A stretch of DNA of 64,000 nt, from NCBI GenBank assembly GCA_964358315.1, contig CAYHOF010000002.1, positions 10,738 through 74,737 of the forward strand, written 5' to 3'. The notes beneath the pieces are model-generated. The model did no database searches. It was not told where the DNA came from and was given only the letters and a program-made list of their open reading frames with translations. Within the stretch, counting starts at the first letter, position 1, and the number at the start of each line of letters is the position of its first letter. Source of the stretch: an uncultured Methanosarcinales archaeon (GTDB lineage Archaea; Nanobdellota; Nanobdellia; Woesearchaeales; ARS49). A program made the position numbers and the translations under genes. Of this stretch, positions 20,155-61,157 are shown one piece after another.

Positions 20155-20274
20155 GGCGGGAACAACTATGATGGGCTTTAATAATGTTCAGACAATGCTA
20201 TTTGGAAATAATGGCTACTTAATAGTGACAGTAATACATAATGTTTATATATGTAGAGAAGGCAAAACGAGATC

Positions 20275-21024
20275 ATGGAACAGAGCTTGGAACGAACAGT
20301 ACAACGCGCCCAAGAATCACACGTTGCGCCAGACCAACGCACATTCACAGTAGAACAAGCGATCAGCATCATCAACGAAGCAGAAGCGCTCCAACGTTTC
20401 GATAAGGATGTACAGGATGAGCATCGACTGCATCTTGAGGGCACGCTGGCGACAACGCCGATGTCGCGCGACGATCTCACGACGCTGGCGCAAAAAGCGG
20501 GCGTTGCCGCACACTACACCGATCGCGTGCTTGACAAGCGATATCCATCATTCGAAGAACAGATGAATGATCTTCGTATGCTTGGCTCAAACCTGAACAG
20601 TGATGTTCGCATGAAGACGTATTTAGATGCGGTCCGAACTATGTTCGGACAAGTCCACCAGCAAGCCTTCCCTCAAGGGCAAGAAACGTTAGAGGTAACA
20701 CGTGATTACGGTAATGGACGAGAGTTTTCACGATGCATACAAACAAGTGTCGAACGTGTTATCCGGCCAGGCATGATTGCGCGCTGGTGCGGCGCAAAGC
20801 TAACAAAAGTCAATGAAGTCCACAAGAAGTACATAGAAGCTGCAACAGTAGCAGTGTTTAGTACGCCTAATATGTGCCAAATAACACTACACGACCCTGT
20901 GTTCACCAAGCTCATCGCAGCACCACTTGCCGAACTTAATCGCGATGTGGCGAAATATTTTTCTGCCATCAACGTGACGCATAAATACGTACCCGGTAAC
21001 AGTCTCGAAGGCTTGAAACTCTAG
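20275..21024 (+). CDS. Hypothetical protein (249 aa) with GC lower than its surroundings.
   Basis: ORF with a leaderless-type promoter (TTTATATATG at about 20244-20253). Confidence 0.45.
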   Translation: MEQSLERTVQRAQESHVAPDQRTFTVEQAISIINEAEALQRFDKDVQDEHRLHLEGTLATTPMSRDDLTTLAQKAGVAAHYTDRVLDKRYPSFEEQMNDLRMLGSNLNSDVRMKTYLDAVRTMFGQVHQQAFPQGQETLEVTRDYGNGREFSRCIQTSVERVIRPGMIARWCGAKLTKVNEVHKKYIEAATVAVFSTPNMCQITLHDPVFTKLIAAPLAELNRDVAKYFSAINVTHKYVPGNSLEGLKL

Positions 21025-24953: not shown

Positions 24954-27200
24954 ATGACCACCGTGACGTTCGCGGCTGTGAGGGACATCACGCCGCGGCT
25001 CTATCAGGAGATCATCCTTGCCACGTGTGTCAAGAAGAACACGCTCGTGGTGCTACCCACAGGCATGGGCAAGACCGCGATCGCGCTCCTGCTCGCGCTG
25101 CACCGCATGCAAACACATCCTGGCTCGAAGGTGCTGTTCCTCGCGCCGACAAAGCCGCTCTGTGAGCAGCACATCAGCACGTTCCGCAGGCATCTGGACG
25201 CGCCCGATGACATGTTCTCGCTCTTCACCGGCAGCGTGCCGCCGGCCAAGCGCGCAGCGCAATGGAAAACAGCACAATTCATCTTTTCCACGCCACAAGG
25301 ACTCGAGAACGACATCATGGGCAGCAGCATCAGTCTCGAGGACTGCTCGCTGATCATCTTCGACGAGGCGCATCGTGCGACCGGCGACTACAGCTATGTC
25401 TTTCTCGCGCAACAGTACAACACGCGCGCGAAATTCCCGCACATCCTCGCGTTGACAGCGTCGCCAGGTAGCGAGGTGGAGAAAGTCATGGAGGTGTGCA
25501 CCAACCTCAAGATCGAACAAGTGGAGGTGCGCACGCCCGACGATCCTGACGTGCAGCCCTACGTACAGGAAGTGGACATCCGACCCATCCGCGTGCAGCT
25601 CACGCCAGACATGGAAGCCATACGGAAACTGCTCATCGCGTGCATGCGTTCCAAAGTGGAGGAGTTGCGTAAGGCAGGCCTCACCAAGCTCTCGTTGAAC
25701 CTCTCGAAGCGCGAACTGCTGGGCATGCAAGCAGAATTGCGTGCCAAGATGACGTCAGGCGAGCATGATTATGACACGATGCGCGCGATCTCGGTCGGCG
25801 CGGAAGCGATGAAGGTGCAGCACGCGCTCGAACTGCTCGAATCGCAAGGGCTCTCGCCGCTCATGGAATATTTCGCGAAGCTGCGCGCCGAAGCCGCCGC
25901 CGGACAGAGCAAGGCCGTCAAGAATCTCATGGTCGACGAACACTGGAAGGGCGCGGACATCAAGACGCAACATCTCGCCGACACTGGCGTCGAACACCCT
26001 AAGGTCGAGAAGGTGCAGGAGATCTGCAAGGCCATGGTCGCGGCCAACCCGAAGGCGAAGATCATCGTGTTCACGCAGTACCGCGACACCGCATCCAAAC
26101 TCAAACAAGTGCTTAGTAGCGCGCCAGGCGTGCTTCCCGAAGTGTTCGTCGGCCAGCAAAAAAAGAAAGGCATCGGTTTGTCACAGAAACAGCAGGTCGA
26201 GTTGTTGCAACAGTTCGGCGACGGCCTCTTCAACGTGCTGCTTGCCACGTGCGTCGCCGAAGAAGGCCTTGACATCCCCACCGTCGACTTGGTGCTCTTC
26301 TACGAGCCTGTGCCAAGCGCTATCAGAACAATCCAGCGCCGCGGCCGGACCGGACGACACGAGGCAGGCAAGGTCATGACGCTCATCACGCAAGGCACGC
26401 GCGACGAAGCGTTCGCTGCAAGCGCGAAATACAAGGAACGCAATATGAACGTCATCCTGCAGGACTTGCGCGCCACGCTCAACAAGAAGTTGCTCCAGCA
26501 ACCACAAGCCACGCTCGCGCGCTACGAGAACACGCAACCCCGGATGACCAAGACCGGTCCGAAGATCTACATCGACTACCGTGAGAAAGCCAGCGGCACG
26601 GCCAAAGAGCTGCTTGAGCGCGGCGCACAGATCACGCTCGAGATGCTGCACGTGGGCGACTATATCGTGAGCGAACGATGCGGCATCGAGTTCAAGACGC
26701 AGGACGACTTCCTTGGCAGTATGATCGACGGACGTTTGCTCGAACAGCTCAAGCACCTGCGCAAAGGGTACGAGCGACCGCTCATCATCGTCGAGGGGGA
26801 CAAGGACTTGTACACATTGCGCAACATCCATCCCAACGCCATCCGCGGCATGCTGGCAGCCATCACCGTCACGTACGGCATACCTATGCTGTGGAGCAAG
26901 ACGCCCATCGAGACCGCGCAGCTCATCATGACGATCGCAGAACGCGAACAGAACGAAACGACGAACAGTTTCTCGCCGCACGCGAACCGCAAACCACTTA
27001 CACTTGCACAGCAACAAGAGTACATCGTCAGTGCATTGCCACAAGTGGGCTTGCAACTCGCGCAGGAACTGCTCAAGAAGTTCGGCAGCGTGCAAGCAGT
27101 GCTGAACGCAAGCATCGACGACCTCAAAGCGGTGGAAGGCGTTGGCGACAAGAAAGCGTCGGTGATAATCGATATCGCGAGGAGCAAGTATGGCAATTGA
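24954..27200 (+). CDS. hef: Hef helicase-nuclease (XPF/FANCM family). It has an SF2 helicase domain, an ERCC4 nuclease domain and a C-terminal (HhH)2.
   Basis: Motifs are PTGMGKT, DEAHRATG and QRRGRTGR. The ERCC4 motif is YIDYREK...GDY...ERK...D. A C-terminal HhH pair is also present. Confidence 0.85.
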   Translation: MTTVTFAAVRDITPRLYQEIILATCVKKNTLVVLPTGMGKTAIALLLALHRMQTHPGSKVLFLAPTKPLCEQHISTFRRHLDAPDDMFSLFTGSVPPAKRAAQWKTAQFIFSTPQGLENDIMGSSISLEDCSLIIFDEAHRATGDYSYVFLAQQYNTRAKFPHILALTASPGSEVEKVMEVCTNLKIEQVEVRTPDDPDVQPYVQEVDIRPIRVQLTPDMEAIRKLLIACMRSKVEELRKAGLTKLSLNLSKRELLGMQAELRAKMTSGEHDYDTMRAISVGAEAMKVQHALELLESQGLSPLMEYFAKLRAEAAAGQSKAVKNLMVDEHWKGADIKTQHLADTGVEHPKVEKVQEICKAMVAANPKAKIIVFTQYRDTASKLKQVLSSAPGVLPEVFVGQQKKKGIGLSQKQQVELLQQFGDGLFNVLLATCVAEEGLDIPTVDLVLFYEPVPSAIRTIQRRGRTGRHEAGKVMTLITQGTRDEAFAASAKYKERNMNVILQDLRATLNKKLLQQPQATLARYENTQPRMTKTGPKIYIDYREKASGTAKELLERGAQITLEMLHVGDYIVSERCGIEFKTQDDFLGSMIDGRLLEQLKHLRKGYERPLIIVEGDKDLYTLRNIHPNAIRGMLAAITVTYGIPMLWSKTPIETAQLIMTIAEREQNETTNSFSPHANRKPLTLAQQQEYIVSALPQVGLQLAQELLKKFGSVQAVLNASIDDLKAVEGVGDKKASVIIDIARSKYGN

Positions 27201-28531: not shown

Positions 28532-28885
28532 TTATGCTTTGCGCATCACAAATGTGGAAAGCCCTTCGATGTGCCGCACGGGCGTCGTGAAGAGGAACTC
28601 ACGGAACGTGTTGTCCACGTGCACGCCATGGCGCATGAGGTGCGTGGCGAGTTCGTGGTAGAGCTTGCGGCCTTCCTCGTCGAGGTCGGTGAGCACCATG
28701 CAGTCCTTCGTGAGCGCGGCGACGCGCTCCACCACCTCGAAGAGCGCGCCTTCAAGAGGGATGACGTTCATGATCCCAAGGTCGGCAAGGGAACGCACGT
28801 CCTTCTTGCCTTCGACGATGATGAGTCCTTTGTACTGGCGCAAGCGTTCGAGGTGCGCCTGCAGTTCTTTCTCGTCTACTCTCAT
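28532..28885 (-). CDS. Small Toprim-domain protein (COG1658-like, RNase M5-like fold).
   Basis: The catalytic Toprim residues are present in LIIVEGKKD and VLTDLDEEG. The start is taken at ATG 28885..28883, with a TATA about 25 nt upstream. The longer TTG-start ORF is discounted. Confidence 0.6.
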   Translation of the reverse strand: MRVDEKELQAHLERLRQYKGLIIVEGKKDVRSLADLGIMNVIPLEGALFEVVERVAALTKDCMVLTDLDEEGRKLYHELATHLMRHGVHVDNTFREFLFTTPVRHIEGLSTFVMRKA

Positions 28886-28908
28886 CCACCTGACACCTCC
28901 GCACAAGC

Positions 28909-28916
28909 TATTTAAA
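28909..28916. promoter_or_regulatory. Palindromic TATA element (TATTTAAA) placed to drive both the Toprim gene on the minus strand and the primase gene on the plus strand.
   Basis: It lies 24-31 nt from the minus-strand start at 28885 and 34 nt from the plus-strand ATG at 28950. Confidence 0.45.
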
Positions 28917-28949
28917 GTTACGCGCAACACCATTTCTCGACGGGGGAAT

Positions 28950-30353
28950 ATGGTCATCCACATCAGCACATTGCTCAAGCACTACAAGCGTCCGGAAGTG
29001 CAGCGCGCGCTGGTCGACGCCTCGCAAGACAGGGAAGTGGGCGTGTTCTACGCAGGGAACAACACCTACGGCAAGCGTCCGGACGTGCTCAATTATCCGC
29101 GCGACGTCATGGAGTTCGTGACTAAAGGCGCGACGAGTTTCCACATCAGCGAGGAGCGCTGGAGCAATCCGCTTGGCATCGTGACTGGCGCGTCCCGTCG
29201 GGACCAGGACGACCTGCGCATCGGCTGGGACTTGATCATCGACATCGACTGTCCGTGGCTCGACTACAGCAAGGTCGCTGCGCACGTGATCGCGCAGAAA
29301 TTCCGCAGCATGGGGATCGGTTGTTTCACGATGAAGTTCTCAGGTAACCATGGCTTCCACATCGCAATACCATTCGAGGCGTTTCCTCCGACAGCGACGG
29401 TCGAGGGCAAGGAGCGTGACGTCAAGGACCTCTTCCCCGAGGGACCAAGAAAGATCGCGGCATACCTGCAAGATGAGATCCGCACACCGCTTGGCAGATT
29501 GCTCGTCGAGAAGTTCACGCTCGATGGCATCAAGAACACGACGGGAAAGACGCACGTCGAGCTTGTCAAGCAAGGACCGAAGGGCCCGTACGTCGATCCG
29601 TTCTCGCTGCTCGCCATCGACACTGTGCTCATCGCGTCACGCCATCTCGTGCGCGCGCCCTACAGCATGCACGACAAATCCGGCCTTGTGAGCATCCCGA
29701 TCGACCCGGACACGGTCATCGATTTTGACAAGAAGACGGCCGCGCCGGACGTGATAACGTTCGAGAGGAAATTCCTTGACAGATCGCGCGCGAAACCCAA
29801 TGAAGCACGTCTGATCTTCGACAACGCGTTCGCGCACAAGCTTCCTTCATCACCGTTGCGTGTGCTCAACGAGGACATCGAGAAGGCGATGAAACACCAA
29901 GAGGACACGATACCGACGGAGGCGCTCGCAGAAAGCATGTTCCCGCCCTGTATGCACAACATCAAGAAAGGCCTCAAGGATGGCAAGAAGCGCGCCATGT
30001 TCGCCGCCGTGAATTTTCTCGTGCTCGCAGGCTGGGAGTATGACAAGATCGAGGAATGGCTGCTGCAGTGGAACAAGAACAACCAGGAGGCGTTGCGCGA
30101 GGTGCACATCAAGGGCCACATCCGGTATCACAAGGCGAACAAGAAGAAAATGCCGCCGCCACGCTGCCGGCAGTACTATAAGGACCTCGGCGTGTGCCAA
30201 CCAGACAGCCTCTGTGACCGCATCAAGAACCCGATCCAGTACGCCAAGCGACGGGCGTTCATGGCCAGCATGGACCAGAAGCCGAAAAGGAAGAAGTCCA
30301 CCGACGAGAACGTGAAAGGCGAAGTGGAGATAGGGACGATGAAAGGCGACTAG
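28950..30353 (+). CDS. priS: DNA primase: a catalytic small subunit PriS fused to the Fe-S C-terminal domain of the large subunit (PriL-CTD).
   Basis: The PriS motifs are LIIDIDCPW and FSGNHGFHI. The C-terminal roughly 130 aa have the PriL-CTD signature FPPCM...LAGW...PPPRCRQYY...GVC...SLCDRIKNPIQY. The start is taken at ATG 28950, in frame with ORF 28665. Confidence 0.8.
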   Translation: MVIHISTLLKHYKRPEVQRALVDASQDREVGVFYAGNNTYGKRPDVLNYPRDVMEFVTKGATSFHISEERWSNPLGIVTGASRRDQDDLRIGWDLIIDIDCPWLDYSKVAAHVIAQKFRSMGIGCFTMKFSGNHGFHIAIPFEAFPPTATVEGKERDVKDLFPEGPRKIAAYLQDEIRTPLGRLLVEKFTLDGIKNTTGKTHVELVKQGPKGPYVDPFSLLAIDTVLIASRHLVRAPYSMHDKSGLVSIPIDPDTVIDFDKKTAAPDVITFERKFLDRSRAKPNEARLIFDNAFAHKLPSSPLRVLNEDIEKAMKHQEDTIPTEALAESMFPPCMHNIKKGLKDGKKRAMFAAVNFLVLAGWEYDKIEEWLLQWNKNNQEALREVHIKGHIRYHKANKKKMPPPRCRQYYKDLGVCQPDSLCDRIKNPIQYAKRRAFMASMDQKPKRKKSTDENVKGEVEIGTMKGD

Positions 30354-45375: not shown

Positions 45376-48300
45376 GTGACGAACAGACCATACTCGCCCA
45401 TGACCGACCCTGACCAGCTGGATGACGCGCCCGCCACCGAACAGACCGCAGAGGTGTTGCCCGCGCTCCCGATGGACGCCGCGGACATGATCCGCAAGTT
45501 CAAGGAATTCTTCGAACAATACTATTATGGCGAGCTGCTCGAGGCGTTGCGCAAGGGCGAGCGCCACATGGGCATCGACTTCCAGAAGCTCGTGCGCTTC
45601 GACCCGCAGCTTGGCGACCTCGTGCTCGACCAGCCCCAAGACGCGCTCAAGGCAGGCGAGCTTGCCGTGCGCGAGTTCGACGCGAAGGTCAAGCAGTTCA
45701 CCATTCGTCTGAGCAACCTACCTGGCAGCAGCTTCCTCATGTTGCGTCACGTGCGCAGCAGGCACTTGGGCAAGATCATGTTCACCGAAGGGATTGTGCG
45801 CCAGAAAAGCGACGTGCGACCGCAGGTCACGGAGGCGACGTTCGAGTGCCCGAGCTGCGGCAACCGCCTCAGCGTGCTGCAGCTCGACACCACGTTCAAG
45901 GAGCCCACGCGCTGCAGTTGCGGACGCAAGGGGAAGTTCAAGCTCACCGGCAAAGAGCTCGTGGACGCGCAAGGCATCGTGCTCGAGGAGGCCGCGGAAC
46001 AGCTCGAGGGCGGCGAGCAGCCAAAGCGCATGAACATCTTTCTCAAGAACGACCTCGTGAGCCCGATCACCGAAAAAAGAACGAACCCCGGCTCGAAGAT
46101 CCGCATCACCGGCGTCATCAAGGAAGTGCCGATCACGACCAAGTCCGGCGGGACGAGCACGCGTTTCGACCTGCTCATCGAGGCCAACCACGTGCTGCCG
46201 GTCGAGGAGGACTTCTCCGAGATCACGATCAGCAAGGAGGAGATGCAGAAGATCCTCGACCTCAAGAACGACCCACATATCGAGAAAAAGCTCATCGACA
46301 GCGTGGCGCCCAACATCTACGGCCACGAAAAGATCAAAGAAGCGCTCGTCCTCCAGCTCATGGGCGGCGTGCGCAAGACCCGTGACCAGGGCGCGGGCGC
46401 GACGACAAGAGGCGACATCCACATCCTGCTCATCGGCGACCCTGGTTCGGGCAAGTCGCAGATGCTCAAACGCATCAGCAAAGTGGCGTTGCGCGGCCGT
46501 TTCATCTCGGGCAAAGGCGTCTCGGGCGCGGGATTGACCGCGAGCGTCGTCAAGGACGAATTCCTCTCGGGCTGGAGCCTTGAGGCAGGCGCGCTCGTGC
46601 TCTCCAACAAAGGCATCTGTTGCATCGACGAACTCGACAAGATGACGGACGAAGACCGCGCGGCTATGCATGAGGCACTGGAAGGTCAAAGCTATCATCC
46701 TGACACTGAACTGCTGCTCGCGGATGGCAGTCGGACAACGATTGGAAGTTTTGTCGACGACGTGATGCGACAATGCACTGTCGTACAAGGGACCGATTGT
46801 GAATTCGCGTTCCCAAAAGACACCACGATCCTCACCACTGACTTCCAGCGCGTTGCACCTGCACGCATCGCACGCGTGAGCCGTCATCCGGCGCCCACGA
46901 CATTTTTCCGCATCACGTTCTCGAATGGACGCGCCATCACCGTCACGCCCGAACATCCTCTGTTCGTGTACACGCACGGAGAGGTCAGCGTGACGCCCGC
47001 ATGCATGGCCACGGTCGGCACCATGGTGCCGGCGCCCAGACGACTGCCCATCGAAGGACGGGCGGTCGCACTCACGCAACCCGCCAAACAGTATCATCAT
47101 GCCAAACCGCACGTGTTACCGACGCACCTGAACGCCGACCTTGCACGCTTGCTCGGCTACGTCGTCACTGAAGGTCATTGTTATGCGAACCCGACCAACC
47201 GCACGTACGAGATCGGCGTGAGCAATACTGACACGAGAATAATCAATGAGGTCGCCGCTCTGTTCAGGAACATTTTCGCGACCGACGTCATCGTCACAAC
47301 GCAAGCAGCGGACAAGCGAGAAAAAGCGACGCGCGATTTATACACCGTCAGGTGCTGCTCACGTCCTATCCATGATTTTTTCGCGCTGAATTTCCCGGAA
47401 CTCATGACGAAAGCGCCGCGTAAACGCGCTCCCTCCGGCATCATGCGGGCGACGGAGGATTGTGTCCGTGCGTTCTTGCAGGGAGCCTTCCGTGGAGATG
47501 GCACGGTCAGCAGTGATGACGTGGGGTTTGCGACAGCCTCACGAAAACTGGCGGAAGACTACCAGGACCTGATGCTGCGGCTGGGAACGCCATCCATCAT
47601 CCGCACCGAACACCGCAACGCCGCGACGTACCATAAGACCATCGTCACAGGCACGGTGGCCGAAAAAACGCACTGGGCCGATTCCATCGTCGTTGAGGAT
47701 GATCCGCGACATCATCGCATCCGCGCCCTTCTTCGACGTGCTGCGCAGAAGAACAACCAACGCGATCCGGTTCCTTCCGAGATCGCCGCGCTCACGCATA
47801 AGGCGCTTCTCGCGCTGAAAATGGCGGATGGCAATATCTCGAGCACGCTCGCCCGCGGCCACGCGCCCTCACGTCAGACCATCACGACCTACGTCGACAA
47901 GATAGATGGCCGACTCGATCTGATTGCAAGATCAGAAGGACGCACTGCCCGCAGACTCGCCAACGTGCAGGTCAGCTCGCTTGCGGAGGGAATGGGACGA
48001 TCGAGCGGTCACGTCTATAACGCCGAACTGGACCACCATCAGGAACACGCGACATACACCACCGTGCTCGACCGACAGGTCGCCCGGAAGATCGGCACTG
48101 TCCAAGAATTGATGGCTCCTGTCAAGCGTTTCCTCGATGCGGATCTCAGAGTGCACACCATCACGAATGTCGAGAGGATCGACAACCCGGGGATCGCGTT
48201 GGTCTATGACGTCACGGTAGAGCCGCACCACAGCTTCATCAGTCAAGGGATGGTCTTGCACAACACGGTGACGATCAGCAAGGCCAACATCCAGGCGACG

Positions 48301-49068
48301 TTGCGTTGCGAGACCACCGTGCTCGCTGCCGCGAACCCGAAGCTGGGGCGTTTCGACCCGTATGAGATCATCGCGAAACAGATCGACCTGCCGCCGACGC
48401 TCATCAACCGTTTCGACCTCATCTTCCCGATCAAGGACCTGCCTGACCCTGTCAAGGACAACAACATGGCGAGCTTCATCCTCGAGATGCACCGCACCGA
48501 GGCAGGCATGAACGCGACCATCGACACTCCGCTGTTCCGCAAGTTCGTCGCGTACGCGAAACTCCACATCAGGCCGCACCTGAGCGAGGAGGCGATCGCC
48601 GAACTCAAGGACTACTACATCCGCATGCGCGGCAGCAGCTCGAGGGAGAGCGGCGTCGTCAAGAGCATCCCGATCTCGGCGCGTCAGCTTGAAGGTCTCG
48701 TGCGTCTGAGCGAGGCGCACGCACGCATGCGCCTCTCCGAGATCGTCGAGCGCAAGGACGCGCGCAAGGCCATAGAACTCCTCGATTACTGCCTGCGCCA
48801 GATCGCGCTCGACGAGGAGACCGGACAGATCGACATCGACCGCATCGGTTCGGACACGTCGTCGAGCCAACGCAACAAGATCCTCCAGGTCAAGGAGATC
48901 ATCAAGACGCTCGAGAACAAGGTCGGCAAGGTCATCCCGATCGACGACGTCGAGCAGGAAGCCGCCCAGAAGGGAGTCACGGACGCGGAGCTCGACGAGA
49001 TCATCCAGAAGCTCAAGAAGAGCGGCGACGTCTTCGAGCCAAAGAGCGGCTACATCTCACGGATCTGA
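45376..49068 (+). CDS. mcm: MCM replicative helicase interrupted by an in-frame intein. The extein is about 705 aa.
   Basis: The N-terminal OB/Zn domain has CPSCGN...CSCG. Walker A is GDPGSGKSQ. Walker B is CIDELDKM followed by the intein, and the TVTISKANIQATL motif resumes after it. The start is GTG 45376 or ATG 45400. Confidence 0.9.
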   Translation: MTNRPYSPMTDPDQLDDAPATEQTAEVLPALPMDAADMIRKFKEFFEQYYYGELLEALRKGERHMGIDFQKLVRFDPQLGDLVLDQPQDALKAGELAVREFDAKVKQFTIRLSNLPGSSFLMLRHVRSRHLGKIMFTEGIVRQKSDVRPQVTEATFECPSCGNRLSVLQLDTTFKEPTRCSCGRKGKFKLTGKELVDAQGIVLEEAAEQLEGGEQPKRMNIFLKNDLVSPITEKRTNPGSKIRITGVIKEVPITTKSGGTSTRFDLLIEANHVLPVEEDFSEITISKEEMQKILDLKNDPHIEKKLIDSVAPNIYGHEKIKEALVLQLMGGVRKTRDQGAGATTRGDIHILLIGDPGSGKSQMLKRISKVALRGRFISGKGVSGAGLTASVVKDEFLSGWSLEAGALVLSNKGICCIDELDKMTDEDRAAMHEALEGQSYHPDTELLLADGSRTTIGSFVDDVMRQCTVVQGTDCEFAFPKDTTILTTDFQRVAPARIARVSRHPAPTTFFRITFSNGRAITVTPEHPLFVYTHGEVSVTPACMATVGTMVPAPRRLPIEGRAVALTQPAKQYHHAKPHVLPTHLNADLARLLGYVVTEGHCYANPTNRTYEIGVSNTDTRIINEVAALFRNIFATDVIVTTQAADKREKATRDLYTVRCCSRPIHDFFALNFPELMTKAPRKRAPSGIMRATEDCVRAFLQGAFRGDGTVSSDDVGFATASRKLAEDYQDLMLRLGTPSIIRTEHRNAATYHKTIVTGTVAEKTHWADSIVVEDDPRHHRIRALLRRAAQKNNQRDPVPSEIAALTHKALLALKMADGNISSTLARGHAPSRQTITTYVDKIDGRLDLIARSEGRTARRLANVQVSSLAEGMGRSSGHVYNAELDHHQEHATYTTVLDRQVARKIGTVQELMAPVKRFLDADLRVHTITNVERIDNPGIALVYDVTVEPHHSFISQGMVLHNTVTISKANIQATLRCETTVLAAANPKLGRFDPYEIIAKQIDLPPTLINRFDLIFPIKDLPDPVKDNNMASFILEMHRTEAGMNATIDTPLFRKFVAYAKLHIRPHLSEEAIAELKDYYIRMRGSSSRESGVVKSIPISARQLEGLVRLSEAHARMRLSEIVERKDARKAIELLDYCLRQIALDEETGQIDIDRIGSDTSSSQRNKILQVKEIIKTLENKVGKVIPIDDVEQEAAQKGVTDAELDEIIQKLKKSGDVFEPKSGYISRI
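46690..48264 (+). mobile_element. Intein (525 aa) with a LAGLIDADG homing-endonuclease domain, inserted in the MCM Walker B/sensor-1 region.
   Basis: It begins with Ser after ...HEALEGQ and ends in HN, followed by Thr at +1. Block A is SYHPDTELLLADG, and the LAGLIDADG-like motifs are LLGYVVTEG and FLQGAFRGDG. The flanking extein matches the MCM consensus. Confidence 0.8.
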
Positions 49069-53091: not shown

Positions 53092-53609
53092 TGAGCGTAC
53101 GGGCCTTGCGGGTTTCTGGTCGGCACAATAATGCATGATCGCTATGCGGTGGTCTTTTGGCATGATGATGCGATCTTGCTTGTTGTAGACGCGCAGCAAC
53201 GACGCGATCTGGGAGGGATCGTGCCATTCAGGCGCGCGATGGTCGCGGATCGGGAACTGTGCACCCTCGACTGGCATCGATGCGATGGAGAGCGCGACGT
53301 AACGCTTGGACGCGGCCAGGTCGATGAAGTGCGCCATCTCGAGCCCGGCAGGATGCACCGTGGTGTGTGGGCCCAGCAACCGCTCAAGCCACGCGTCAAG
53401 AGTGACGTCTTTGTCGGTCCGGATCGTCGGCAGTTCGAGGATGCCGCCCGAGCGTATCCTGTTCATGCGATACCGTGCCTCCGGTGTCGTGCAGACGAAG
53501 GGATCGTGATGATGCCATTCATAGCGCCGCACGAGCAAGACCTCGTGGTGCGGCACGCCCTCCCGCAGGCCGGTGTAGTTCGTGATGACGACGGGGATGC
53601 CGCTCACCC
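53071..53609 (-). CDS. Hypothetical protein (about 179 aa), apparently translationally coupled to the PolD large subunit.
   Basis: The GTG start overlaps the TGA stop of the upstream PolD gene in a GGTGAG arrangement. It has good GC3 usage and no recognised family. Only the part of ORF 53071..53808 downstream of the PolD stop was kept. Confidence 0.35.
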
Positions 53610-56600
53610 GAACCACCGTCCGAGCCCTTCCTGTTTCTCCTTGTCCTTGCCGAACACGCTTTCGACGTGACATTTGAGCAGATGGACGGTCTGTTTGAGA
53701 TACGGCGAAAGGTCGTACGCCTCGGCGAGGCTGATGGTGGGCTCGAGGTACTTTATCACGCTGCCTTCCGAGATGGTGAAGAGCAGCTTGCCTTTGCACT
53801 TGGTGCATTTGCCAAGCAACGGCGGCCTACGGAATTTCTCGTTGCAGTCGACGCAACGGAATTCCTGACTCGAGAATTTACGCAGGTTGCCGCGTGTGTC
53901 CTTGATGAAGTGTTTTTCTATCACGAGGCGCGCGACGTCCGATGTGTCCACCGCGCGGATCTTGAACGCGAGGTCCATCTGGCCCTTGAGCTTGTCCTCC
54001 ATGCTCGGGATCATCTTGTAGGCGCTGCACAGCACGCCGTTGTTGATATCGGTGGTGTCGTGCGTGAAGCCGAACCCTTCGTACTGTTCTGGTTTGTCGA
54101 GCACGTGCTTGATCTGCAGGATCTTGACTTCCTTTGGCATCTTGTACTCGAGCGCGGCCTCATAGAGCTCGAGCGGATAGCTCCATGCGATGTCCACGTC
54201 GAAGGCCATGTCGTCGACCTCGGAGGGCGTGAGCACGCTCGTGAGCACGAGCGGCGCGTCCATGGTGCCGCCACGGCTCGTGGGCAGGAACTCCTTGGAG
54301 AAATTCAGCATGCCATCGAGCAGCAACATGAAACCCATCTCGTCGCCGTCGCAGTCGCGACGGCATGCGCAGTGGAAGTACGGATGCGCGAGGAACCCTT
54401 GCGTGCGCGAGAACCCGATGATACGACCCACCATGCCCGCGCTCGTGTGCGGCGCGAGCCCGATGATGAGGTGGCCCACAAGATCGTAGGGCGTCTGCAG
54501 GTTGTAATAGCGGGGCAGGCCGTACATGAGTTCGAGCTGGTCGTCGATGAACTTGGTGACGCGATAGAGCACCGCATCGCTGGGCTCGTGCGGTTTGGCC
54601 TCGAGACAGCAGGGGATGACGATGTCCTGCGGCCGCAGCTCGATCACCTGGTCGTCGCGCTCGATCGGCGCGCCTTTGATGTCGTGCGTGTAGCCGAGTT
54701 CGAGCAGGCGCTCGACCGGCGTGCGGATCTCGCGCGGCCGGAAGTGCGTGAGCGCGACCTCGCTGCAATCATAACGGATGGTGCCATCCTTGTTGACATG
54801 CACGTCGTGCTTTGCGCGCAGGACGGACTTGAAGATGTGCTCCGGGACATGAGTGTCGTTCATCATGCCGCGCACGCCCTTGATCTGGTCCGGGAACGTC
54901 GCCATGTGCAGCCGCTTGACGGTGTTCTCGAACATGCGTTTGATGTCGATCTTTCGGCGTTTCGATGACTCGGTGTCAGGCGTCTTGGACTCGGCGTCCG
55001 CCTGGCGGGTGCGCGAGTAGTAGCGTTGACGGGTGCGGGCGCCGCATTGGTCGCACACGCGGTAGATGCAATCGAGCTTGCACACGTCGCAGTACATGAG
55101 CGGGAAGTCGCCGGTAACGCCTCCCTTCTCGAACGCGGCCTGTAACGAGCGGAGACGCCCGCCTTCGTCACCGACAGGACACAGTCCGTGCGGGCTGCCG
55201 GTCATCTTGCGCATCTTCGCTTTCTCAGGACGCCCCATGCGCGAACCGATATAGATGCCGCTCTTGTCGCGCAAGCGGACAGAGGAAAGCTTGTTCACGA
55301 GCACAAGGACGTTCTCCTGGGGGTTCGCCGAGACGAGCGCCGACCCCTTGAGCGCGTCAGGCGCCGCCATCGCGCCGAGCGAGAGCGCGAGCGCGCCTGC
55401 GACCGGCGCATCGATGACGACGAATTCGTTGTTGACGACGGTGTGCGGGACGCCGAGCAGTTCGAGCGCGCGCTTGGGTTCGGCGTCGATGGGCAGCACG
55501 ATCTTGTCGACGAGACCGTCGTGGTCTGTCCACGTGCCTTTCGAGAGCCAGTCACAGAGCAACGAGAACGCGCCTGGCTCGATGTCTGCCCAGTGGTATG
55601 TGTAGAACGGGTGTAATGGCGTGCTCGATCCTTTGGCGAGCGCGAGCGCCTCTGCGAGGGTGGGCTTCGCCAGCATCGGCTCCGCAAGCAGTTCCTTGAT
55701 GCGGGACGCGCCGAGCCCGCACACGTCCGCGGCCTTCTCCATGTCGAGTGAGCCTGTCGTCGTGACGATGCCTTTCTCGACCTCCTTGGCCCACCATTCT
55801 TCGCAGTAGCCTGCGGGCACGAGCGGGTGGGCGCGGTTGACGAAGTCGCCATACGGGATCAGCACGTCGCCGAGGAAGAGTATCTCGCGCACGCGTGGCG
55901 CCATCGCCTTCGCGAGCTTCTCGTTGTCGAGCAGCAGCACGGATCCGTCGTCGATCTTGACGATCGGCCCTTCGATCATGTCGCAGGGCGTGAATGCCGC
56001 GCCTTTGCCCGGCCTCTCGACCTTGAGCTGCGTGCCGGTCGCGATGTAATTGTTGAGGATGTGCATTGTCGCAGGATGGATGCTCTGGCCGCTCAGGCCC
56101 GATGCGCGCGATCTGCCGTAGCGCAAGCGCCATCCTCCTTTGCGCAAGGGGTGCCCGAGGACCGGACGACCTGCGACGAGATCCGCGATGTAGGTGAAGT
56201 CGGGAAGGATCTTGGGACCGCCTTCTTTTTTCGTCGCGCCTTGCGCCTTCATCTTCTTCTGGATGTTCAGGAATTCCTCCATGAAATCCCAGTGCTCCAT
56301 GCCGAAGTCCTTGCCCCACTTGCCGAGCTGGTTCCAGAGCTTGGGGCCTTTGAGCGGGATGCAGCTGCTGAGGATGAGGCAGTAACCGCTGCGGATCTTG
56401 TTGGTCGGGATGCGCGGCAGGTCCTTGTAATTGCTCACGTCCATCTTCTCGCTGGGCTCGCCCGCGACTTCGACAGGGAGGTTCTTCATGAGGAATTCGA
56501 CCTCCGGCTCGCTCGGGTGGTATTGGAGGTTCGTGACGCGGTCGTGGTAGTCCTGCATCTCGACCGACGCGCGCTTGATCTCCTCAGGGGTGGCATCGTA

Positions 56601-57146
56601 CGTGTCGATGCCCATCTTCTTGCGGACGTAGTCCGCGATGATGACGCTCACCGCGGCGGCCGTGCCCCCTGCGTTGCGGATCGGGCCAGCATAGCTGATG
56701 GAGAGGTAGTCGCCGCGGCCGTCGATGCGTTTCTTGAGTTCGATGGAGACGATGCCGTCCAATGGCGAGCTCACGACGCCCACCGTGACGTAGGCGAACC
56801 CTGTCCTGATGCCGATGTCGATGGCCTCCAGTTTCGTCTCGAACGTGCAGAACTTCTGGGCCGCGACCTCCTCGGCGATCTTGAGCGCGACGCGCCAGTC
56901 GAGCGCGCCGAACTGTCTCTCGAGCTCGATGATGCGCTGCACGACACCTGTGCCGACGATCTGCGGCGCGAGCACCGATATGAGACCCTCGACGCGCTCG
57001 GCCATGTTCTCGGCGAGCTTGATCTCGACGTCGTCGGACGGATCGAACCCTGCCGCGCGCGCACGCTTGCCGATGGCGACCATTGCCATCGAGGCCTTCT
57101 TGAGCGTCTCGAAATACCGCTGCATCATCGGGCTCGCGGCGGTCAT
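53604..57146 (-). CDS. dp2: DNA polymerase II (PolD) large catalytic subunit DP2.
   Basis: The 1180 aa protein has the DP2 pattern and a C-terminal zinc finger (CDVCKLDC...CDQCG). It contains no intein. Confidence 0.9.
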   Translation of the reverse strand: MTAASPMMQRYFETLKKASMAMVAIGKRARAAGFDPSDDVEIKLAENMAERVEGLISVLAPQIVGTGVVQRIIELERQFGALDWRVALKIAEEVAAQKFCTFETKLEAIDIGIRTGFAYVTVGVVSSPLDGIVSIELKKRIDGRGDYLSISYAGPIRNAGGTAAAVSVIIADYVRKKMGIDTYDATPEEIKRASVEMQDYHDRVTNLQYHPSEPEVEFLMKNLPVEVAGEPSEKMDVSNYKDLPRIPTNKIRSGYCLILSSCIPLKGPKLWNQLGKWGKDFGMEHWDFMEEFLNIQKKMKAQGATKKEGGPKILPDFTYIADLVAGRPVLGHPLRKGGWRLRYGRSRASGLSGQSIHPATMHILNNYIATGTQLKVERPGKGAAFTPCDMIEGPIVKIDDGSVLLLDNEKLAKAMAPRVREILFLGDVLIPYGDFVNRAHPLVPAGYCEEWWAKEVEKGIVTTTGSLDMEKAADVCGLGASRIKELLAEPMLAKPTLAEALALAKGSSTPLHPFYTYHWADIEPGAFSLLCDWLSKGTWTDHDGLVDKIVLPIDAEPKRALELLGVPHTVVNNEFVVIDAPVAGALALSLGAMAAPDALKGSALVSANPQENVLVLVNKLSSVRLRDKSGIYIGSRMGRPEKAKMRKMTGSPHGLCPVGDEGGRLRSLQAAFEKGGVTGDFPLMYCDVCKLDCIYRVCDQCGARTRQRYYSRTRQADAESKTPDTESSKRRKIDIKRMFENTVKRLHMATFPDQIKGVRGMMNDTHVPEHIFKSVLRAKHDVHVNKDGTIRYDCSEVALTHFRPREIRTPVERLLELGYTHDIKGAPIERDDQVIELRPQDIVIPCCLEAKPHEPSDAVLYRVTKFIDDQLELMYGLPRYYNLQTPYDLVGHLIIGLAPHTSAGMVGRIIGFSRTQGFLAHPYFHCACRRDCDGDEMGFMLLLDGMLNFSKEFLPTSRGGTMDAPLVLTSVLTPSEVDDMAFDVDIAWSYPLELYEAALEYKMPKEVKILQIKHVLDKPEQYEGFGFTHDTTDINNGVLCSAYKMIPSMEDKLKGQMDLAFKIRAVDTSDVARLVIEKHFIKDTRGNLRKFSSQEFRCVDCNEKFRRPPLLGKCTKCKGKLLFTISEGSVIKYLEPTISLAEAYDLSPYLKQTVHLLKCHVESVFGKDKEKQEGLGRWFG

Positions 57147-58612
57147 GCTGCATCACCGCTGCTGAAGTTGAGCACGCTGACCTCGCGAGTCTGGAGGTTG
57201 ACGATGGGCACGCGGCACGGGTCGGGGTTGTGCCCGACTTTCTCCTGGAATTTGGTGCGTGCCTGGAAACAGCTGCCGGAGATGATGGTCACGCCACGGT
57301 AATTGAGGAACGACGACTTGTGGATGTGGCCGGAGAAGAAGAAATCCGGGGCGGATTCGATGACGAGCGCGTCGCGCTGCGGGTCGACGATGAACTGCGT
57401 GCTGTCATAGCTTGGCGCGAGGTGTCGGCGCTGCAGGAGGAACCGCATGATGAGGCTGATGCGCGCCGAGACGTCCTTGCCGCTCTCGCGGATGGAGTCG
57501 ACGCGGTCGCCGTAATAATCGTAGCTGTAGCCGTGGTAGAGCAGCACGTCGAACCCCGGGAAGGTGTCCGTGCGCCCTACCACGACGACCGCAGGGTTGC
57601 TCACGAACGTGATGTTGGGCAGATCATGGAGCACGGGGAGGTACTCGCGCGGGATCTTCGGTTGCGGCTCGGCGAGCCTCACCGCGTCGTGGTTGCCCGG
57701 GCTGATGATGACGCGGATGTGCGCGGGGATCTCCTTGATGAAACGCTCGAACTCCTTGTACTGCTCGTTGATGTCGGGAAGGGTGAGTTCCTTGTTCTGC
57801 GCGGGATAGATGCCGACGCCATCCACCGCGTCGCCGACGATGACGACATACCTGACCTTGCGCGCCATCGCGCGCTGGCGTTCGGTGCCGGTCTCCCCCC
57901 TGAGCCACCGTATGCACTTGCCGAACTCCTCGGGAAGGAAGTTGTTCGACCCGACGTGCGGGTCGGAGAGCACCACAAGATAGTCCTCGGTCGGGGATTT
58001 CTTGAGTTCGTGGGTGAGCGGAACGTCCGGGTGGATGATGTCGCTCACGAAGATGGCGCCGCCCGCATTCTGGCCCAGCACGCCTATCACTTCGTCGAGC
58101 ACGAGGTCTTTGGCTTTCTTGAACATCTGCTCGCGGGACTTGGGGAAGATGAGTTTGACCGACCCGGTGAGGTCCTCGAGGACCACGATGAGGTTGCCGT
58201 TCTTGGTCTCTTGCTTGTCCGCGACAAAGCCGATGAGCGCGACCTTCTCGCGTTCGCCGTTCGGGGACAACCTGCTGATGGACGTCACGGCCGCGAGTTC
58301 TTGGCGTTCGCTCAGGATGCGGGCGAGCGCGCGGAAGCGCGCTTTGAAGTATGCGACGAAGTCGTCGACCGTGACCTTGCGGCCCGCCACGTCGTAGTCG
58401 CGGACGATAACGACGCCGGGCGCTTCGGTCCGCGGCACGCTGCCTATCATCTGGTGGATGTCCTGGCCTGGTTGCGGTGACGCGCTCATGTCATAGAGGG
58501 TGTCGAGGAATCGCGGATCGTTCATCCGTTGCAGGAGGTCGGACGTGACGAGCACGTTGTTCTGTAACAGGAACGTGACCACGTTCTTCTTCTTGTCGAG
58601 TGCGTCAGCCAT
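57143..58612 (-). CDS. dp1: DNA polymerase II (PolD) small subunit DP1, a metallophosphoesterase-fold exonuclease.
   Basis: It has a calcineurin-like phosphoesterase domain (GDAVDG...GNHD) and an N-terminal OB. The start was chosen at the ATG overlapping the orc1 stop. Confidence 0.9.
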   Translation of the reverse strand: MADALDKKKNVVTFLLQNNVLVTSDLLQRMNDPRFLDTLYDMSASPQPGQDIHQMIGSVPRTEAPGVVIVRDYDVAGRKVTVDDFVAYFKARFRALARILSERQELAAVTSISRLSPNGEREKVALIGFVADKQETKNGNLIVVLEDLTGSVKLIFPKSREQMFKKAKDLVLDEVIGVLGQNAGGAIFVSDIIHPDVPLTHELKKSPTEDYLVVLSDPHVGSNNFLPEEFGKCIRWLRGETGTERQRAMARKVRYVVIVGDAVDGVGIYPAQNKELTLPDINEQYKEFERFIKEIPAHIRVIISPGNHDAVRLAEPQPKIPREYLPVLHDLPNITFVSNPAVVVVGRTDTFPGFDVLLYHGYSYDYYGDRVDSIRESGKDVSARISLIMRFLLQRRHLAPSYDSTQFIVDPQRDALVIESAPDFFFSGHIHKSSFLNYRGVTIISGSCFQARTKFQEKVGHNPDPCRVPIVNLQTREVSVLNFSSGDAA

Positions 58613-59819
58613 GGATCGAGAGCGCCTCCATGACGATGGCATGCACTTGGGCGAGTGTGGCCGCCGGCAGCGCGATGCCTATCTCCCGCGTCCGTCCGTA
58701 CCTGCCCTTGCTGATGACCTTGCTTTGGATGAGGCCGAGCATGTCGAATTCCTGGATGATATCCGACACCCGCCGTTGGGTCAGCGGACGCAGGCTGGCC
58801 TTGCCGCACAATGCCTGGTACTTTTCGTAGATCTCGCCGGTGAAGACCGCTTGTTGGCGTTCGGCGCACGCGGTGAGGACCGCGCACAAGGTGGCCTGAT
58901 GTTGTTTTGGTTGCGTGCGGACGCAGTCGAGAACGCGTTCGTTCTCCATCGAGGACTCCGCCACGTCGAGGTATGCCATGCCCACTGTCTCGTTATGTTC
59001 GCGTTCGCAGAGTTCGGCGGCGGTGCGCAACAGCATAATGGCCCGTCGGGCGTCGCCGTGGTCTTGCGCCGCGAGCGCCGCGCATTTCTGGACCACGCCG
59101 TCCTCGAGGACGCCCGGCGCGAACGCGAGCGAGGCACGCTGTTTGAGTATGTCGAGCAGTTGCACGGCGTTGTAGCGCGGGAACAACAACTCCTCCTCGG
59201 AGAGCGAACTGCGCACGCGCGGGTCAAGCGTGTCCTTGAACGTGAGGTTGTTCGAGACGCCGACGAGCGTGATACGACTATTGTGCAGGTGTTCGTTGAT
59301 GCGCAGAAGGTTGTAGAGGAGTTGGTCGTCCGCTTTTTCGACCAGTGCGTCGATCTCGTCGAGCACGAGGAGCATGGTGCACTTCTTGGCGTCGAGTTCC
59401 TCGTAGAACGTCTTGTAGACTTCGTCGGTGGGAAGGCCTGTCGCAGGCAGTGGCCGGCCGAGTTCTTTGGCGAGCTGGGCGACGAGGCGGTACTCTGTGT
59501 CCGCGGTGCGTTTGAGCTTGCAGTTGATGTACGTGACGATGACAGGAAGGGCGAGTTTCTCCGCGGCTTGTTTGATCTGCCGTGTCGTGAACAGCGTGAC
59601 GAGCGTCTTGCCCGTGCCAGGATAACCGTAGATGAAGAGGTTGTTGGATTTTTGGCCGCGGAGGATCGGCGCGAGGACGTTCGCCACCTGTGTGATCTGC
59701 TCGTCGCGATGGAGGATGTCCTCTGGCTGGAAATCCGTCTGCAATGCTTGTTTGTTGGCGAACAGCGATTTATGTGATAGGTACTGCTCGAAAAAATTTG
59801 CTAGTTTCCTCTCTTCCAC
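58605..59819 (-). CDS. orc1: Orc1/Cdc6 replication initiator.
   Basis: It has AAA+ Walker A (GYPGTGKT), Walker B (LVLDEID) and a C-terminal wH. It lies directly adjacent to the AT-rich oriC. Confidence 0.9.
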   Translation of the reverse strand: MEERKLANFFEQYLSHKSLFANKQALQTDFQPEDILHRDEQITQVANVLAPILRGQKSNNLFIYGYPGTGKTLVTLFTTRQIKQAAEKLALPVIVTYINCKLKRTADTEYRLVAQLAKELGRPLPATGLPTDEVYKTFYEELDAKKCTMLLVLDEIDALVEKADDQLLYNLLRINEHLHNSRITLVGVSNNLTFKDTLDPRVRSSLSEEELLFPRYNAVQLLDILKQRASLAFAPGVLEDGVVQKCAALAAQDHGDARRAIMLLRTAAELCEREHNETVGMAYLDVAESSMENERVLDCVRTQPKQHQATLCAVLTACAERQQAVFTGEIYEKYQALCGKASLRPLTQRRVSDIIQEFDMLGLIQSKVISKGRYGRTREIGIALPAATLAQVHAIVMEALSIHG

Positions 59820-59917
59820 CGTGACGTCCCCTTTTGTGTGGTTCCATCTGCAATGCAGGTTATTTAAGTTTTTGCAGACTGTATTTGTTGTATCGAAGGA
59901 TCAGTAATGATAATACT

Positions 59918-59947
59918 CCACAGTCACCCCTTGATTTCCTCTGGAAC
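59918..59947 (-). promoter_or_regulatory. Origin recognition box ORB1, a dyad plus G-string.
   Basis: The reverse complement reads ATTGTTCCAGAGGAAATCAAGGGGTGACTGTGG, which resembles the archaeal ORB consensus (TTCCAnnGGAAA plus GGGG). Confidence 0.5.
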
Positions 59948-59949
59948 AA

Positions 59950-60225
59950 TATGATGATAGTTCAAAATTCGTGTTTTATGTTATTTTCTAAAATATATTA
60001 ACAAATACATTATTTATATTATATATTTTGAATCACAACTATTTCGTGTTTTTTCATAGTGTAATATTATATTTTTATATAAAAAATAATAATATATATA
60101 ATATAATATATATAATATAAAATAATAAAAACAAAATAATGTTTGAATAATATAATTAAACAAAAATTTCATACGTACACGAAAAACAAAGGACAAAAAT
60201 CATTCACAACTTCATCAATACTATT
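59950..60225. other. AT-rich duplex unwinding element of the predicted oriC, containing A/T simple repeats.
   Basis: The region is about 15-20% GC within a roughly 60% GC genome. It is flanked by inverted ORB elements and lies next to orc1. Confidence 0.55.
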
Positions 60226-60226
60226 T

Positions 60227-60250
60227 TTCCATACGAAATCAAGGGGTGGG
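60227..60250 (+). promoter_or_regulatory. Origin recognition box ORB2, inverted relative to ORB1.
   Basis: TTCCATACGAAATCAAGGGGTGGG shares the core GAAATCAAGGGGTG with ORB1. Confidence 0.5.
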
Positions 60251-60343
60251 AAGGATTCACGTCGGAGTATATTTGTTGCTACTTAATGAGGATGACATTA
60301 AAGGAAGATTTATATACTAGTTATATCTCTTCCGTAGTAACAA

Positions 60344-60359
60344 GTGGAGTTATCTCCAC
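60344..60359 (+). promoter_or_regulatory. Perfect palindrome GTGGAGTTATCTCCAC between the TATA at 60309-60316 and the trmB start codon, a candidate operator.
   Basis: The dyad was read directly. It overlaps the expected TSS. Confidence 0.35.
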
Positions 60360-60377
60360 ACATGAGGTCCACCCACA

Positions 60378-61157
60378 ATGCTCGTCCAAAACGATTTTTT
60401 GAACAAACTCAAGGATTTCGGTCTCAATAGCTACGAAGCCAAGCTCTGGACAGCGCTCCTCTCGCGCGGCGTCTCGACGGCAGGCGAGCTTTCTGACATT
60501 GCCAACGTCCCTCGTTCACGATCGTACGACGTGCTCGAGAGCCTCGAGAAGAAAGGGTTCATCATCATGAAGCTCGGCAAGCCCATCAAGTACATCGCCG
60601 TGCCTCCTGCAGAAGTCGTCGAGCGCATCAAGAAGAAGGTGCAGGAAGACGCCGTCAAGCACTCGAACGTCCTCGACGGACTCAAGGGCAGCGACGTGCT
60701 CGAGGAGCTCGACATGCTGCACAAGAACGGCATCCAGCTCGTCGACCCGGCCGACATGACAGGCGCCGTCAAAGGCCGCAGCAACCTCTACGACCACATC
60801 CATTCCATGATCAAGAACGCCAAGAAATCCGTCTCCATCATCACGACCGAAGCAGGCCTTGGCCGCAAGACGACCGCGCTCAAAGGCGCGCTCCAGAAGG
60901 CCAAGGAAAAAGGCGTCACGATCCGCATCCTCTCGCCCGGCAAGGCAAACGACCTCAAGGCGCTCGCGCAGATGCGCACGCTCGAGAACATCAACGCACG
61001 CATATGCCTCATCGACGAGACACACGTGATCATGATGCCTCTCGACGACGCGAACACGCACGCCAACTACGACTTCGGCATCTGGGTCAAGACCGACTTC
61101 ATGGCGAACGCCATGGAACGCGTCTTCGACGTGCTCTGGCAGAACGCGAAGAAATAG
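60378..61157 (+). CDS. TrmB-family transcriptional regulator.
   Basis: It has an N-terminal wHTH (LNSYEAKLWTALLSRGVSTAGELSDIANVPRSRSYDVLESLEKKGFI) and a C-terminal sensing domain. Confidence 0.8.
   Translation: MLVQNDFLNKLKDFGLNSYEAKLWTALLSRGVSTAGELSDIANVPRSRSYDVLESLEKKGFIIMKLGKPIKYIAVPPAEVVERIKKKVQEDAVKHSNVLDGLKGSDVLEELDMLHKNGIQLVDPADMTGAVKGRSNLYDHIHSMIKNAKKSVSIITTEAGLGRKTTALKGALQKAKEKGVTIRILSPGKANDLKALAQMRTLENINARICLIDETHVIMMPLDDANTHANYDFGIWVKTDFMANAMERVFDVLWQNAKK

Follow-up and report, generated by a model that had tools for sequence, protein, structure and literature searches.

The question raised by this locus is whether the strongly AT-rich intergenic DNA upstream of an orc1/cdc6 gene, found in a 64 kb stretch of contig CAYHOF010000002.1 (the whole of which is here called the window, and to which all coordinates given without a contig name refer), is the chromosomal replication origin of the uncultured DPANN archaeon that carries it. 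An earlier note on this DNA had proposed as much, pointing to two inverted copies of an origin recognition box (ORB) on either side of the AT-rich segment and to the replication genes nearby. All of the sequence-level hallmarks of an archaeal oriC that were open to testing supported that proposal, and the locus is, in our assessment, very probably an oriC1-type chromosomal origin, recognised by Orc1, of a relative of the Woesearchaeota, Pacearchaeota and Nanoarchaeota. The assessment is based on the adjacent orc1 gene, an extremely AT-rich candidate duplex unwinding element (DUE), the inverted ORBs, the uniqueness of their motif within the window, and the conservation of this arrangement near orc1 in related genomes.

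Boxes and AT-rich zone upstream of orc1

The initiator gene, orc1/cdc6 (nt 58605–59819, minus strand), specifies a protein of 404 aa with Pfam domains AAA_22/AAA_16, Cdc6_lid and a Cdc6_C winged helix, and it adjoins the AT-rich segment, as the earlier note had stated. The candidate DUE within that segment (nt 59947–60226, no strand assigned) is 280 nt in length and has a G+C content of 15.4%. Its left half is T-rich and its right half A-rich, with simple repeats of A/T and palindromes composed of A and T only. The lowest G+C content of any 100 nt in the window, 4%, occurs inside it (nt 60061–60160), and the extreme AT richness claimed for this DNA is borne out. The segment from nt 59901 to 60240 is the sole long stretch below 30% G+C in a window that averages about 58%, and in which 1-kb windows outside the origin mostly lie between 53 and 65%.

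Two boxes bracket the AT-rich zone, and both were recovered by direct reading as well as by an inverted-repeat finder. The orc1-distal box, ORB-a, is on the plus strand (nt 60227–60248, TTCCATACGAAATCAAGGGGTG), and the orc1-proximal box, ORB-b, is on the minus strand (nt 59925–59946, TTCCAGAGGAAATCAAGGGGTG), 106 nt from the start of orc1 (nt 59819). In inverted orientation they are identical at 20 of 22 positions, and the consensus given for them previously, TTCCAnAnGAAATCAAGGGGTG, is correct. The ranges first assigned to the boxes (nt 59918–59947 and 60227–60250) do contain them, and are slightly too wide. The repeat finder returned an inverted repeat (I1) with arms of 27 nt that are 89% complementary and separated by 270 nt, and the complete unit of ORB, DUE and ORB spans about 324 nt. 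The dyad end of ORB-a is directed towards the AT-rich zone and its G-run end outwards; the dyad end of ORB-b is likewise directed towards the AT-rich zone.

The exact 14-mer GAAATCAAGGGGTG is present at just two sites in the window, ORB-a and ORB-b, and the pattern TTCCA-N3-GAAA-N4-GGGG, allowing zero mismatches, is found only at the same two places. A motif that was widespread would, according to the earlier note, have spoken against an origin; within the 64 kb it is confined to the two origin sites. As to whether the boxes are ORBs, the TTCCA-N3-GAAAT core is present, and the accompanying G-string amounts only to a short GGGG(T), located 3 nt after GAAAT. The count of two boxes was also incomplete, since a third ORB-like element, ORB-c (see below), lies closer to orc1.

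Two minor features of base composition may be mentioned here. The heptamer TTCGTGT is found three times in the DUE (nt 59968 and 60043, plus strand; nt 60177, minus strand), the plus-strand copies being in the left half and the minus-strand copy in the right half, and these represent three of the six copies in the whole window. Among relatives, L085 has a similar pair, TTCGTAT, and L001 has none; the heptamer could be a secondary protein site or a chance occurrence. The only other spot in the window below 30% G+C (nt 20161–20260) has no ORB matches, sits between a Ski2-like helicase gene (nt 18244–20154, minus strand) and an open reading frame (ORF) at nt 20275–21024 (plus strand), and looks like an ordinary divergent promoter region.

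Initiator, relatives and conserved layout

The closest solved structures to the window Orc1 are Orc1-1 of S. solfataricus (2qby_A, E = 1.3e-98) and ORC1 of A. pernix (2v1u_A, E = 1.6e-87). Both are initiators that were crystallised on origin DNA, and the window protein aligns with them over its full length. Residues G128/L129 of the initiator-specific motif (ISM), R348 of the helix-turn-helix (TQRRVSDII) and R372 of the wing (GRYGRT) correspond, respectively, to G120/L121, R341 and R365 of the S. solfataricus protein, and mutation of the latter residues weakens origin binding (PMC3089459). With its ISM-bearing AAA+ domain, lid, winged helix and contact residues all retained, the window initiator is, as judged from its sequence, a member of the Orc1-1/Cdc6-1 class.

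To collect relatives, the Orc1 protein was compared with a single genome from each GTDB species, which gave 80 loci. All are from metagenome-assembled genomes (MAGs) of DPANN archaea, labelled Woesearchaeota, Pacearchaeota, Nanoarchaeota or Iainarchaeum, and their Orc1 proteins share 48–51% identity with that of the window, except for L001 at 68%. A protein database provided additional closer relatives, two at 68% (L085, L088) and two at 61% (L086, L087). The distant loci (L002–L080) have G+C contents of 24–42%, compared to about 58% in the window, while L001 and L085–L088 group with the window at 51–58%. The window and the relatives sharing its synteny represent an unusually GC-rich groundwater lineage of DPANN archaea, against which the 4% G+C core of the origin is stark.

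ORB-like sites found upstream of orc1 were assembled, over successive iterations, into a weight matrix of 28 nt that came to include 214 sites (consensus aaaTTTCCAtagGAAATcaaGGtGTg). At a threshold of >14 bits, the relatives had 2.1 ORB matches per kb within 1.5 kb upstream of orc1, versus 0.083 per kb elsewhere. The matches outside of origins, recorded over 721 kb of the relatives' flanking DNA, were mostly at one conserved coding site, and a single match, in total, was located downstream of the orc1 start across all loci. For a non-circular version, the window and L001 were excluded, the matrix was trained again on the remaining 79 distant relatives, and the composition of the window served as background. 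On the window it gave 38.8 bits for ORB-a and 28.3 bits for ORB-b, and every other site on the two strands (128 kb of sequence) scored below 0 bits. No other evidence argues as strongly that the boxes belong to a conserved, and presumably functional, element tied to orc1, and are neither a chance inverted repeat nor part of a mobile element.

The layout is also conserved. The 59 loci that retain enough upstream DNA all have, in order, an ORB on the minus strand, the AT-rich zone, two ORBs on the plus strand, and orc1. The distal ORB is on the strand opposite to orc1, 280 to 680 nt upstream of that gene, and the AT-rich zone has a median length of 233 nt (range 73–662 nt). In every case the TTCCA dyad end of the flanking boxes points into the AT-rich zone, as it does in the window, and the orc1-DP1-DP2 synteny, in which orc1 is followed by the genes for the small (DP1) and large (DP2) subunits of PolD, is kept in 79 of the 80 loci. 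The two same-strand ORBs that precede orc1 lie 96–100 nt apart, measured between their starts (mode 98), in each of the 59 complete loci, a spacing that is unusually rigid given that Orc1 identity between the species is only about 50%.

The origins of L002–L080 have in common with the window their ORB family (consensus TTTCCAtagGAAATcaaGGtGTg), inward-facing boxes, an AT-rich zone and the orc1-DP1-DP2 order, but differ in that they carry two tandem same-strand ORBs where the clade of the window has one, together with an inverted, degenerate ORB in the promoter. They also differ in the genes beyond the origin and in the G-run, which is GGGGTG in the window and GGTGT in L002–L080 (GGtGT in the consensus of the wider clade). 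Orthologues of ORB-b occur 131 to 167 nt upstream of the orc1 start in L001, L085, L086 and L088. The full three-box layout is present in L085, L086 and L088, whereas L001 and L087 are incomplete and show those parts that have been retained. The two relatives in which the upstream flank survives, L086 and L088, share with the window the order histone, Hjc, TFE, TrmB-like gene, origin, orc1, DP1, DP2.

The third box, ORB-c (nt 59841–59859, plus strand, GTTCCATCTGCAATGCAGG), is a degenerate element inverted relative to ORB-b. It directly abuts the putative TATA box of orc1 (nt 59860–59868, minus strand, CTTAAATAA) and lies between it and the start codon. When the orc1-proximal intergenic DNA of the window was aligned with that of L001, L085, L086, L087 and L088, a conserved block was seen in all six genomes, consisting of a TATA-like (A/T)TAAA(A/T) followed immediately by ACCT...TGGAA(C). 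Both ACCT and TGGAA are invariant columns of the alignment which, read on the other strand, form an inverted ORB. The orthologous sequences are GTTCCATGAGAAATCAAGG in L001, GTTCCACGAGAAGTCAAGG in L085, GTTCCACGTGCAATGAAGG in L088, GTTTCCAAATGCAAAAGAGG in L086 and TTTCCAGACGAAATCAAGG in L087, and both position and orientation are kept in five of five same-synteny relatives. The 13-nt core of ORB-c scores 8.2 bits, which is weak on its own, as six comparable core matches are found elsewhere in the window; the GCAAT variant that it carries is shared by genuine flanking ORBs in L085 and L086. ORB-c is probably an operator for autoregulation by Orc1, because an occupied box in this place, past the TATA box and ahead of the start codon, would block the orc1 promoter.

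A fourth ORB-like sequence, TTTCCACTGGAAATGAAGGGGTTCC, was observed in 54 of the AT-rich relatives (within L003–L080), at a median distance of 1610 nt beyond the distal ORB (e.g. L018, nt 3909–3936, minus strand; L012, approximately nt 4018–4045, minus strand). After it comes a (CAGA)n stretch, some 35–45 nt in length. The sequence is read in one fixed frame in all 54 loci, giving the peptide ..IS(T)GNEGVPTDRQTDRQTD.., within a protein that has a coiled-coil and a C-terminal winged helix-turn-helix. The possibilities of a small RNA and of an additional Orc1 site were considered and set aside, given the in-frame coding in 54 of 54 loci and the lack of any Rfam match at this place. The codons used (TCC, GAC, CAG) are rare in those genomes, a hint that the DNA, and not the peptide alone, may be under constraint. 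A search of the window for this gene detected neither a homologue nor a (CAGA)n run.

A more speculative proposal, which we put forward tentatively and with some doubt, is that the origin of this lineage is a three-box module in which self-repression by Orc1 would tie initiator dosage to origin occupancy, and that the rigid, undescribed architecture of the relatives (tandem ORBs at 96–100 nt plus, some 1.6 kb away, an ORB-like sequence in frame within a conserved winged-helix gene) may reflect a higher-order Orc1-DNA structure unseen in model archaea.

Known origins, proposed mechanism and alternative explanations

The architecture of the window matches the definition of an archaeal origin given in PMC4010727 and PMC5333045. 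Among the Thermococcales, ORB1 and ORB2 of P. furiosus have been shown experimentally to bind Cdc6, ORB1 in electrophoretic mobility shift assays, and the reverse complement of the ORB1 oligonucleotide reads TTCCAGTGGAAATGAAACTCTGGGGGG (PMC1904270). Over the first 16 nt of this box (core TTCCAGTGGAAATGAA), 14 positions agree with ORB-b and 12 with ORB-a. The core motifs 'TTCC' and 'GAA', singled out in that study, are present in the window boxes; the P. furiosus core TTCCAG-GGAAAT-AA is common to the window, and TTCCA-N3-GAAAT matches both ORB1 and ORB2. Also shared with the Thermococcales are the order origin, cdc6/orc1, dp1, dp2 (PMC1904270) and two long ORBs arranged as an inverted repeat around AT-rich DNA. 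Unlike the window, the Thermococcales have a swarm of 13-bp mini-ORBs and a second ORB cluster inside dp1; with the full matrix, a search of the window, dp1 included, for further ORBs or mini-ORBs revealed nothing else above 3 bits. In the window there is instead one long DUE (280 nt), longer than in the known origins, and the host is a DPANN archaeon of about 58% G+C rather than a hyperthermophilic euryarchaeon.

In oriC1 of Sulfolobus, ORB2 and ORB3 are inverted around the DUE and each is essential; each binds one Orc1-1 monomer with a defined polarity, and jointly they direct MCM to the DUE (PMC12141716). The window resembles this origin in having inverted ORBs flanking a DUE beside an orc1-1 gene, and three ORB elements in total. 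It differs in the length of the ORB-DUE-ORB unit, about 324 nt compared to about 130 bp in S. islandicus, and in the third box, which in the window is inverted and overlaps the promoter of the initiator gene, unlike that of Sulfolobus oriC1. A ucm/UBP system is not known from the window, where no search aimed at one was made.

The Pyrococcus/Thermococcales oriC was reportedly described by Myllykallio in 2000 and Matsunaga in 2001 and 2007 (the latter PMC1904270), and Sulfolobus oriC1 by Robinson in 2004. The argument from ORB polarity is a general one: it draws on the crystal structures of 2007 and on broad statements in PMC12141716, and not on which end of the individual boxes faces the DUE in Sulfolobus or Aeropyrum.

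If the window functions as these origins do, monomers of Orc1/Cdc6 would occupy ORB-a and ORB-b, each in a fixed polarity that places the winged helix on the TTCCA-N3-GAAAT dyad and the ISM of the AAA+ domain on neighbouring DNA. Because the boxes are inverted, both Orc1 complexes would face the unwinding element of 280 nt and 15% G+C, where ATP-bound initiators would recruit MCM hexamers and the AT-rich DNA would melt. Bidirectional replication would then proceed with the co-encoded PolD, primase and other replisome proteins. At the weaker, inverted ORB-c abutting the TATA box, Orc1 would most likely repress its own promoter. We infer Orc1 binding, MCM loading, origin firing and autoregulation from model archaea.

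Several points limit the case for an active origin at this site. GC skew lends it no support of its own: the cumulative GC-skew minimum of the window is near 49 kb and not at 60 kb, where the change in the sign of the skew coincides with a switch in gene orientation and only 4 kb are available to the right of the site. The ORB scan of the host genome covered the 64 kb of the window. The G-run is shorter and nearer to the dyad than in P. furiosus (GAAAT-CAA-GGGG, a gap of 3 nt, versus GAAAT-GAAACTCT-GGGGGG, a gap of 8 nt). Finally, T. kodakarensis grows without Cdc6 or oriC, so that a canonical oriC can be dispensable (PMC5663688).

The last of these observations also favours a different explanation, in which the boxes are Orc1 operators in a divergent promoter (of orc1, the TrmB-like gene described below, or both), or else mark a dormant or dispensable origin, with replication beginning elsewhere or by recombination. 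Orc1 paralogues can be pure regulators (PMC9738581), and the conserved placement of ORB-c against the orc1 TATA box makes a transcriptional role for Orc1 binding likely in any case. Regulation alone, however, leaves unexplained a long AT-rich zone with inward-facing boxes that is kept across 80 species. The initiator, moreover, is of the Orc1-1 type, ORC1 is near-universal and single-copy in the phylum (206 of 208 complete genomes at a strict threshold; preprint 10.64898/2026.05.13.725050), and no second candidate origin was seen in the window, all of which make this explanation improbable. It is less probable still that the origin was acquired with an integrated plasmid or virus replicon, as a cassette of orc1 plus origin, and is not the ancestral chromosomal one. 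Integration of extrachromosomal elements has indeed provided haloarchaea and Sulfolobus with extra orc1-origin pairs (PMC4010727), but in the present case the orc1-DP1-DP2 linkage and the ORB layout are kept in 79–80 species, down to about 48% Orc1 identity, the flanks consist of core housekeeping genes, Orc1 is of the conserved Orc1-1 type, and no integrase or mobile-element genes were seen nearby.

Two further explanations appear to us extremely unlikely. Inverted repeats of 22–27 nt placed about 280 nt apart around non-coding, AT-rich DNA formally resemble the termini of a non-autonomous foldback element or miniature inverted-repeat transposable element with an AT-rich interior, but the structure is present once in the window, has no visible target-site duplication at its ends, and carries a motif that is the ORB consensus at a fixed position beside orc1 in 80 species; it is this orthologous position next to orc1 that argues against a mobile element. 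A similarly slight chance is given to an assembly artefact, or a chimeric contig join in low-complexity sequence. AT-rich simple repeats do break assemblies, and the contigs of many relatives, as well as L084 (see below), end in this zone, but the region is spanned by three independent assemblies, with L082 and L083 matching at 100%, and L081 and L083 identical over nt 59800–60400.

The preferred reading, a chromosomal origin recognised by Orc1, would place the element as an expected and apparently undocumented member of a well-known class, its differences from other origins being variation within a known kind. Descriptions of ORBs for DPANN archaea, Woesearchaeota or Nanoarchaeota/Nanoarchaeum were not found in the searchable literature, and absence there is no proof. 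A 2026 preprint (10.64898/2026.05.13.725050) takes ORC1 as 'the replication origin' to which it rotates 208 complete Nanobdellota genomes, and nowhere uses the terms ORB, oriC or GC skew. The current analysis provides a precise and comparatively validated predicted origin for an uncultured, GC-rich DPANN archaeon, including its boxes, unwinding zone and probable autoregulatory site, and a clade-wide ORB consensus for a phylum so far without origin analysis. Such a consensus could be used to anchor genome starts and in coverage-based estimates of growth rate in metagenomes. The understanding of how replication is initiated in archaea is unchanged by the result.

Neighbouring genes and assembly support

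The genes downstream of orc1 specify PolD. The small subunit, DP1 (nt 57143–58642 as the longest ORF, minus strand; Pfam DNA_pol_E_B, Metallophos), is called on identical contigs from a start at nt 58612, overlapping the orc1 stop, and is followed by the large subunit, DP2 (nt 53604–57146, minus strand; Pfam PolC_DP2_N, central and catalytic domains). The MCM helicase gene (nt 45376–49068, plus strand; Pfam MCM, MCM_OB, MCM_lid, Intein_splicing, LAGLIDADG_3) is about 11 kb from the origin. The helicase, which acts in trans, is the one presumably loaded at the DUE, and its gene is not origin DNA. The MCM ORF is 1230 aa in total and is interrupted in the P-loop region by an intein carrying a LAGLIDADG homing-endonuclease domain. 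About 30 kb from the origin are a fused PriS-PriL primase, encoded by a single ORF of 562 aa (nt 28665–30353, plus strand), and Hef (nt 24954–27200). Fused primases of this kind are known from Nanoarchaeum. The clustering of replisome genes put forward by the earlier note therefore holds for orc1 and PolD, is looser for MCM, and was generous in the case of the primase and Hef.

The right boundary of the origin intergenic region is formed by a divergent gene (nt 60378–61157, plus strand; Pfam TrmB, PLDc_2) whose product is a TrmB-like regulator carrying a PLD-like domain at its C terminus; after this gene come TFE and Hjc. The same neighbour is present in L081, L082, L086 (nt 2510–3304) and L088 (nt 2430–3209), and is the conserved divergent neighbour of the origin in the clade of the window. 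Two tRNAs, both distant from the origin, were the only matches when the window was scanned with Rfam and for tRNAs. The contig also carries a ribosomal-protein operon and SecY and, because these are present along with the MCM gene, it is judged from its gene content to be chromosomal.

An identical Orc1 protein is encoded on four further contigs (L081–L084) from independent ENA assemblies of Hainich (H43) groundwater. The origin is complete on L081, L082 and L083: the match to the window is 100% for L082 and L083, and a base-by-base comparison of nt 59800–60400 showed no difference between it and either L081 or L083. The fourth, L084, ends inside the AT-rich zone and contains just one of the two flanking boxes, the orc1-proximal ORB. 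At its start, L083 has 136 nt that do not match the window, the rest of that contig being identical, and these could represent a chimeric contig end or a strain rearrangement within the region of the TrmB-like gene.

In many MAGs the contig ends within a few hundred nt upstream of orc1, in or near the AT-rich zone (L001, L005–L008, L011, L015, L019, L025, L040, L047, L053, L054, L057, L060, L063 and L084). Assemblies of these organisms seem to break systematically at the origin, and the ORB consensus helps to explain the frequent breaks just upstream of orc1.

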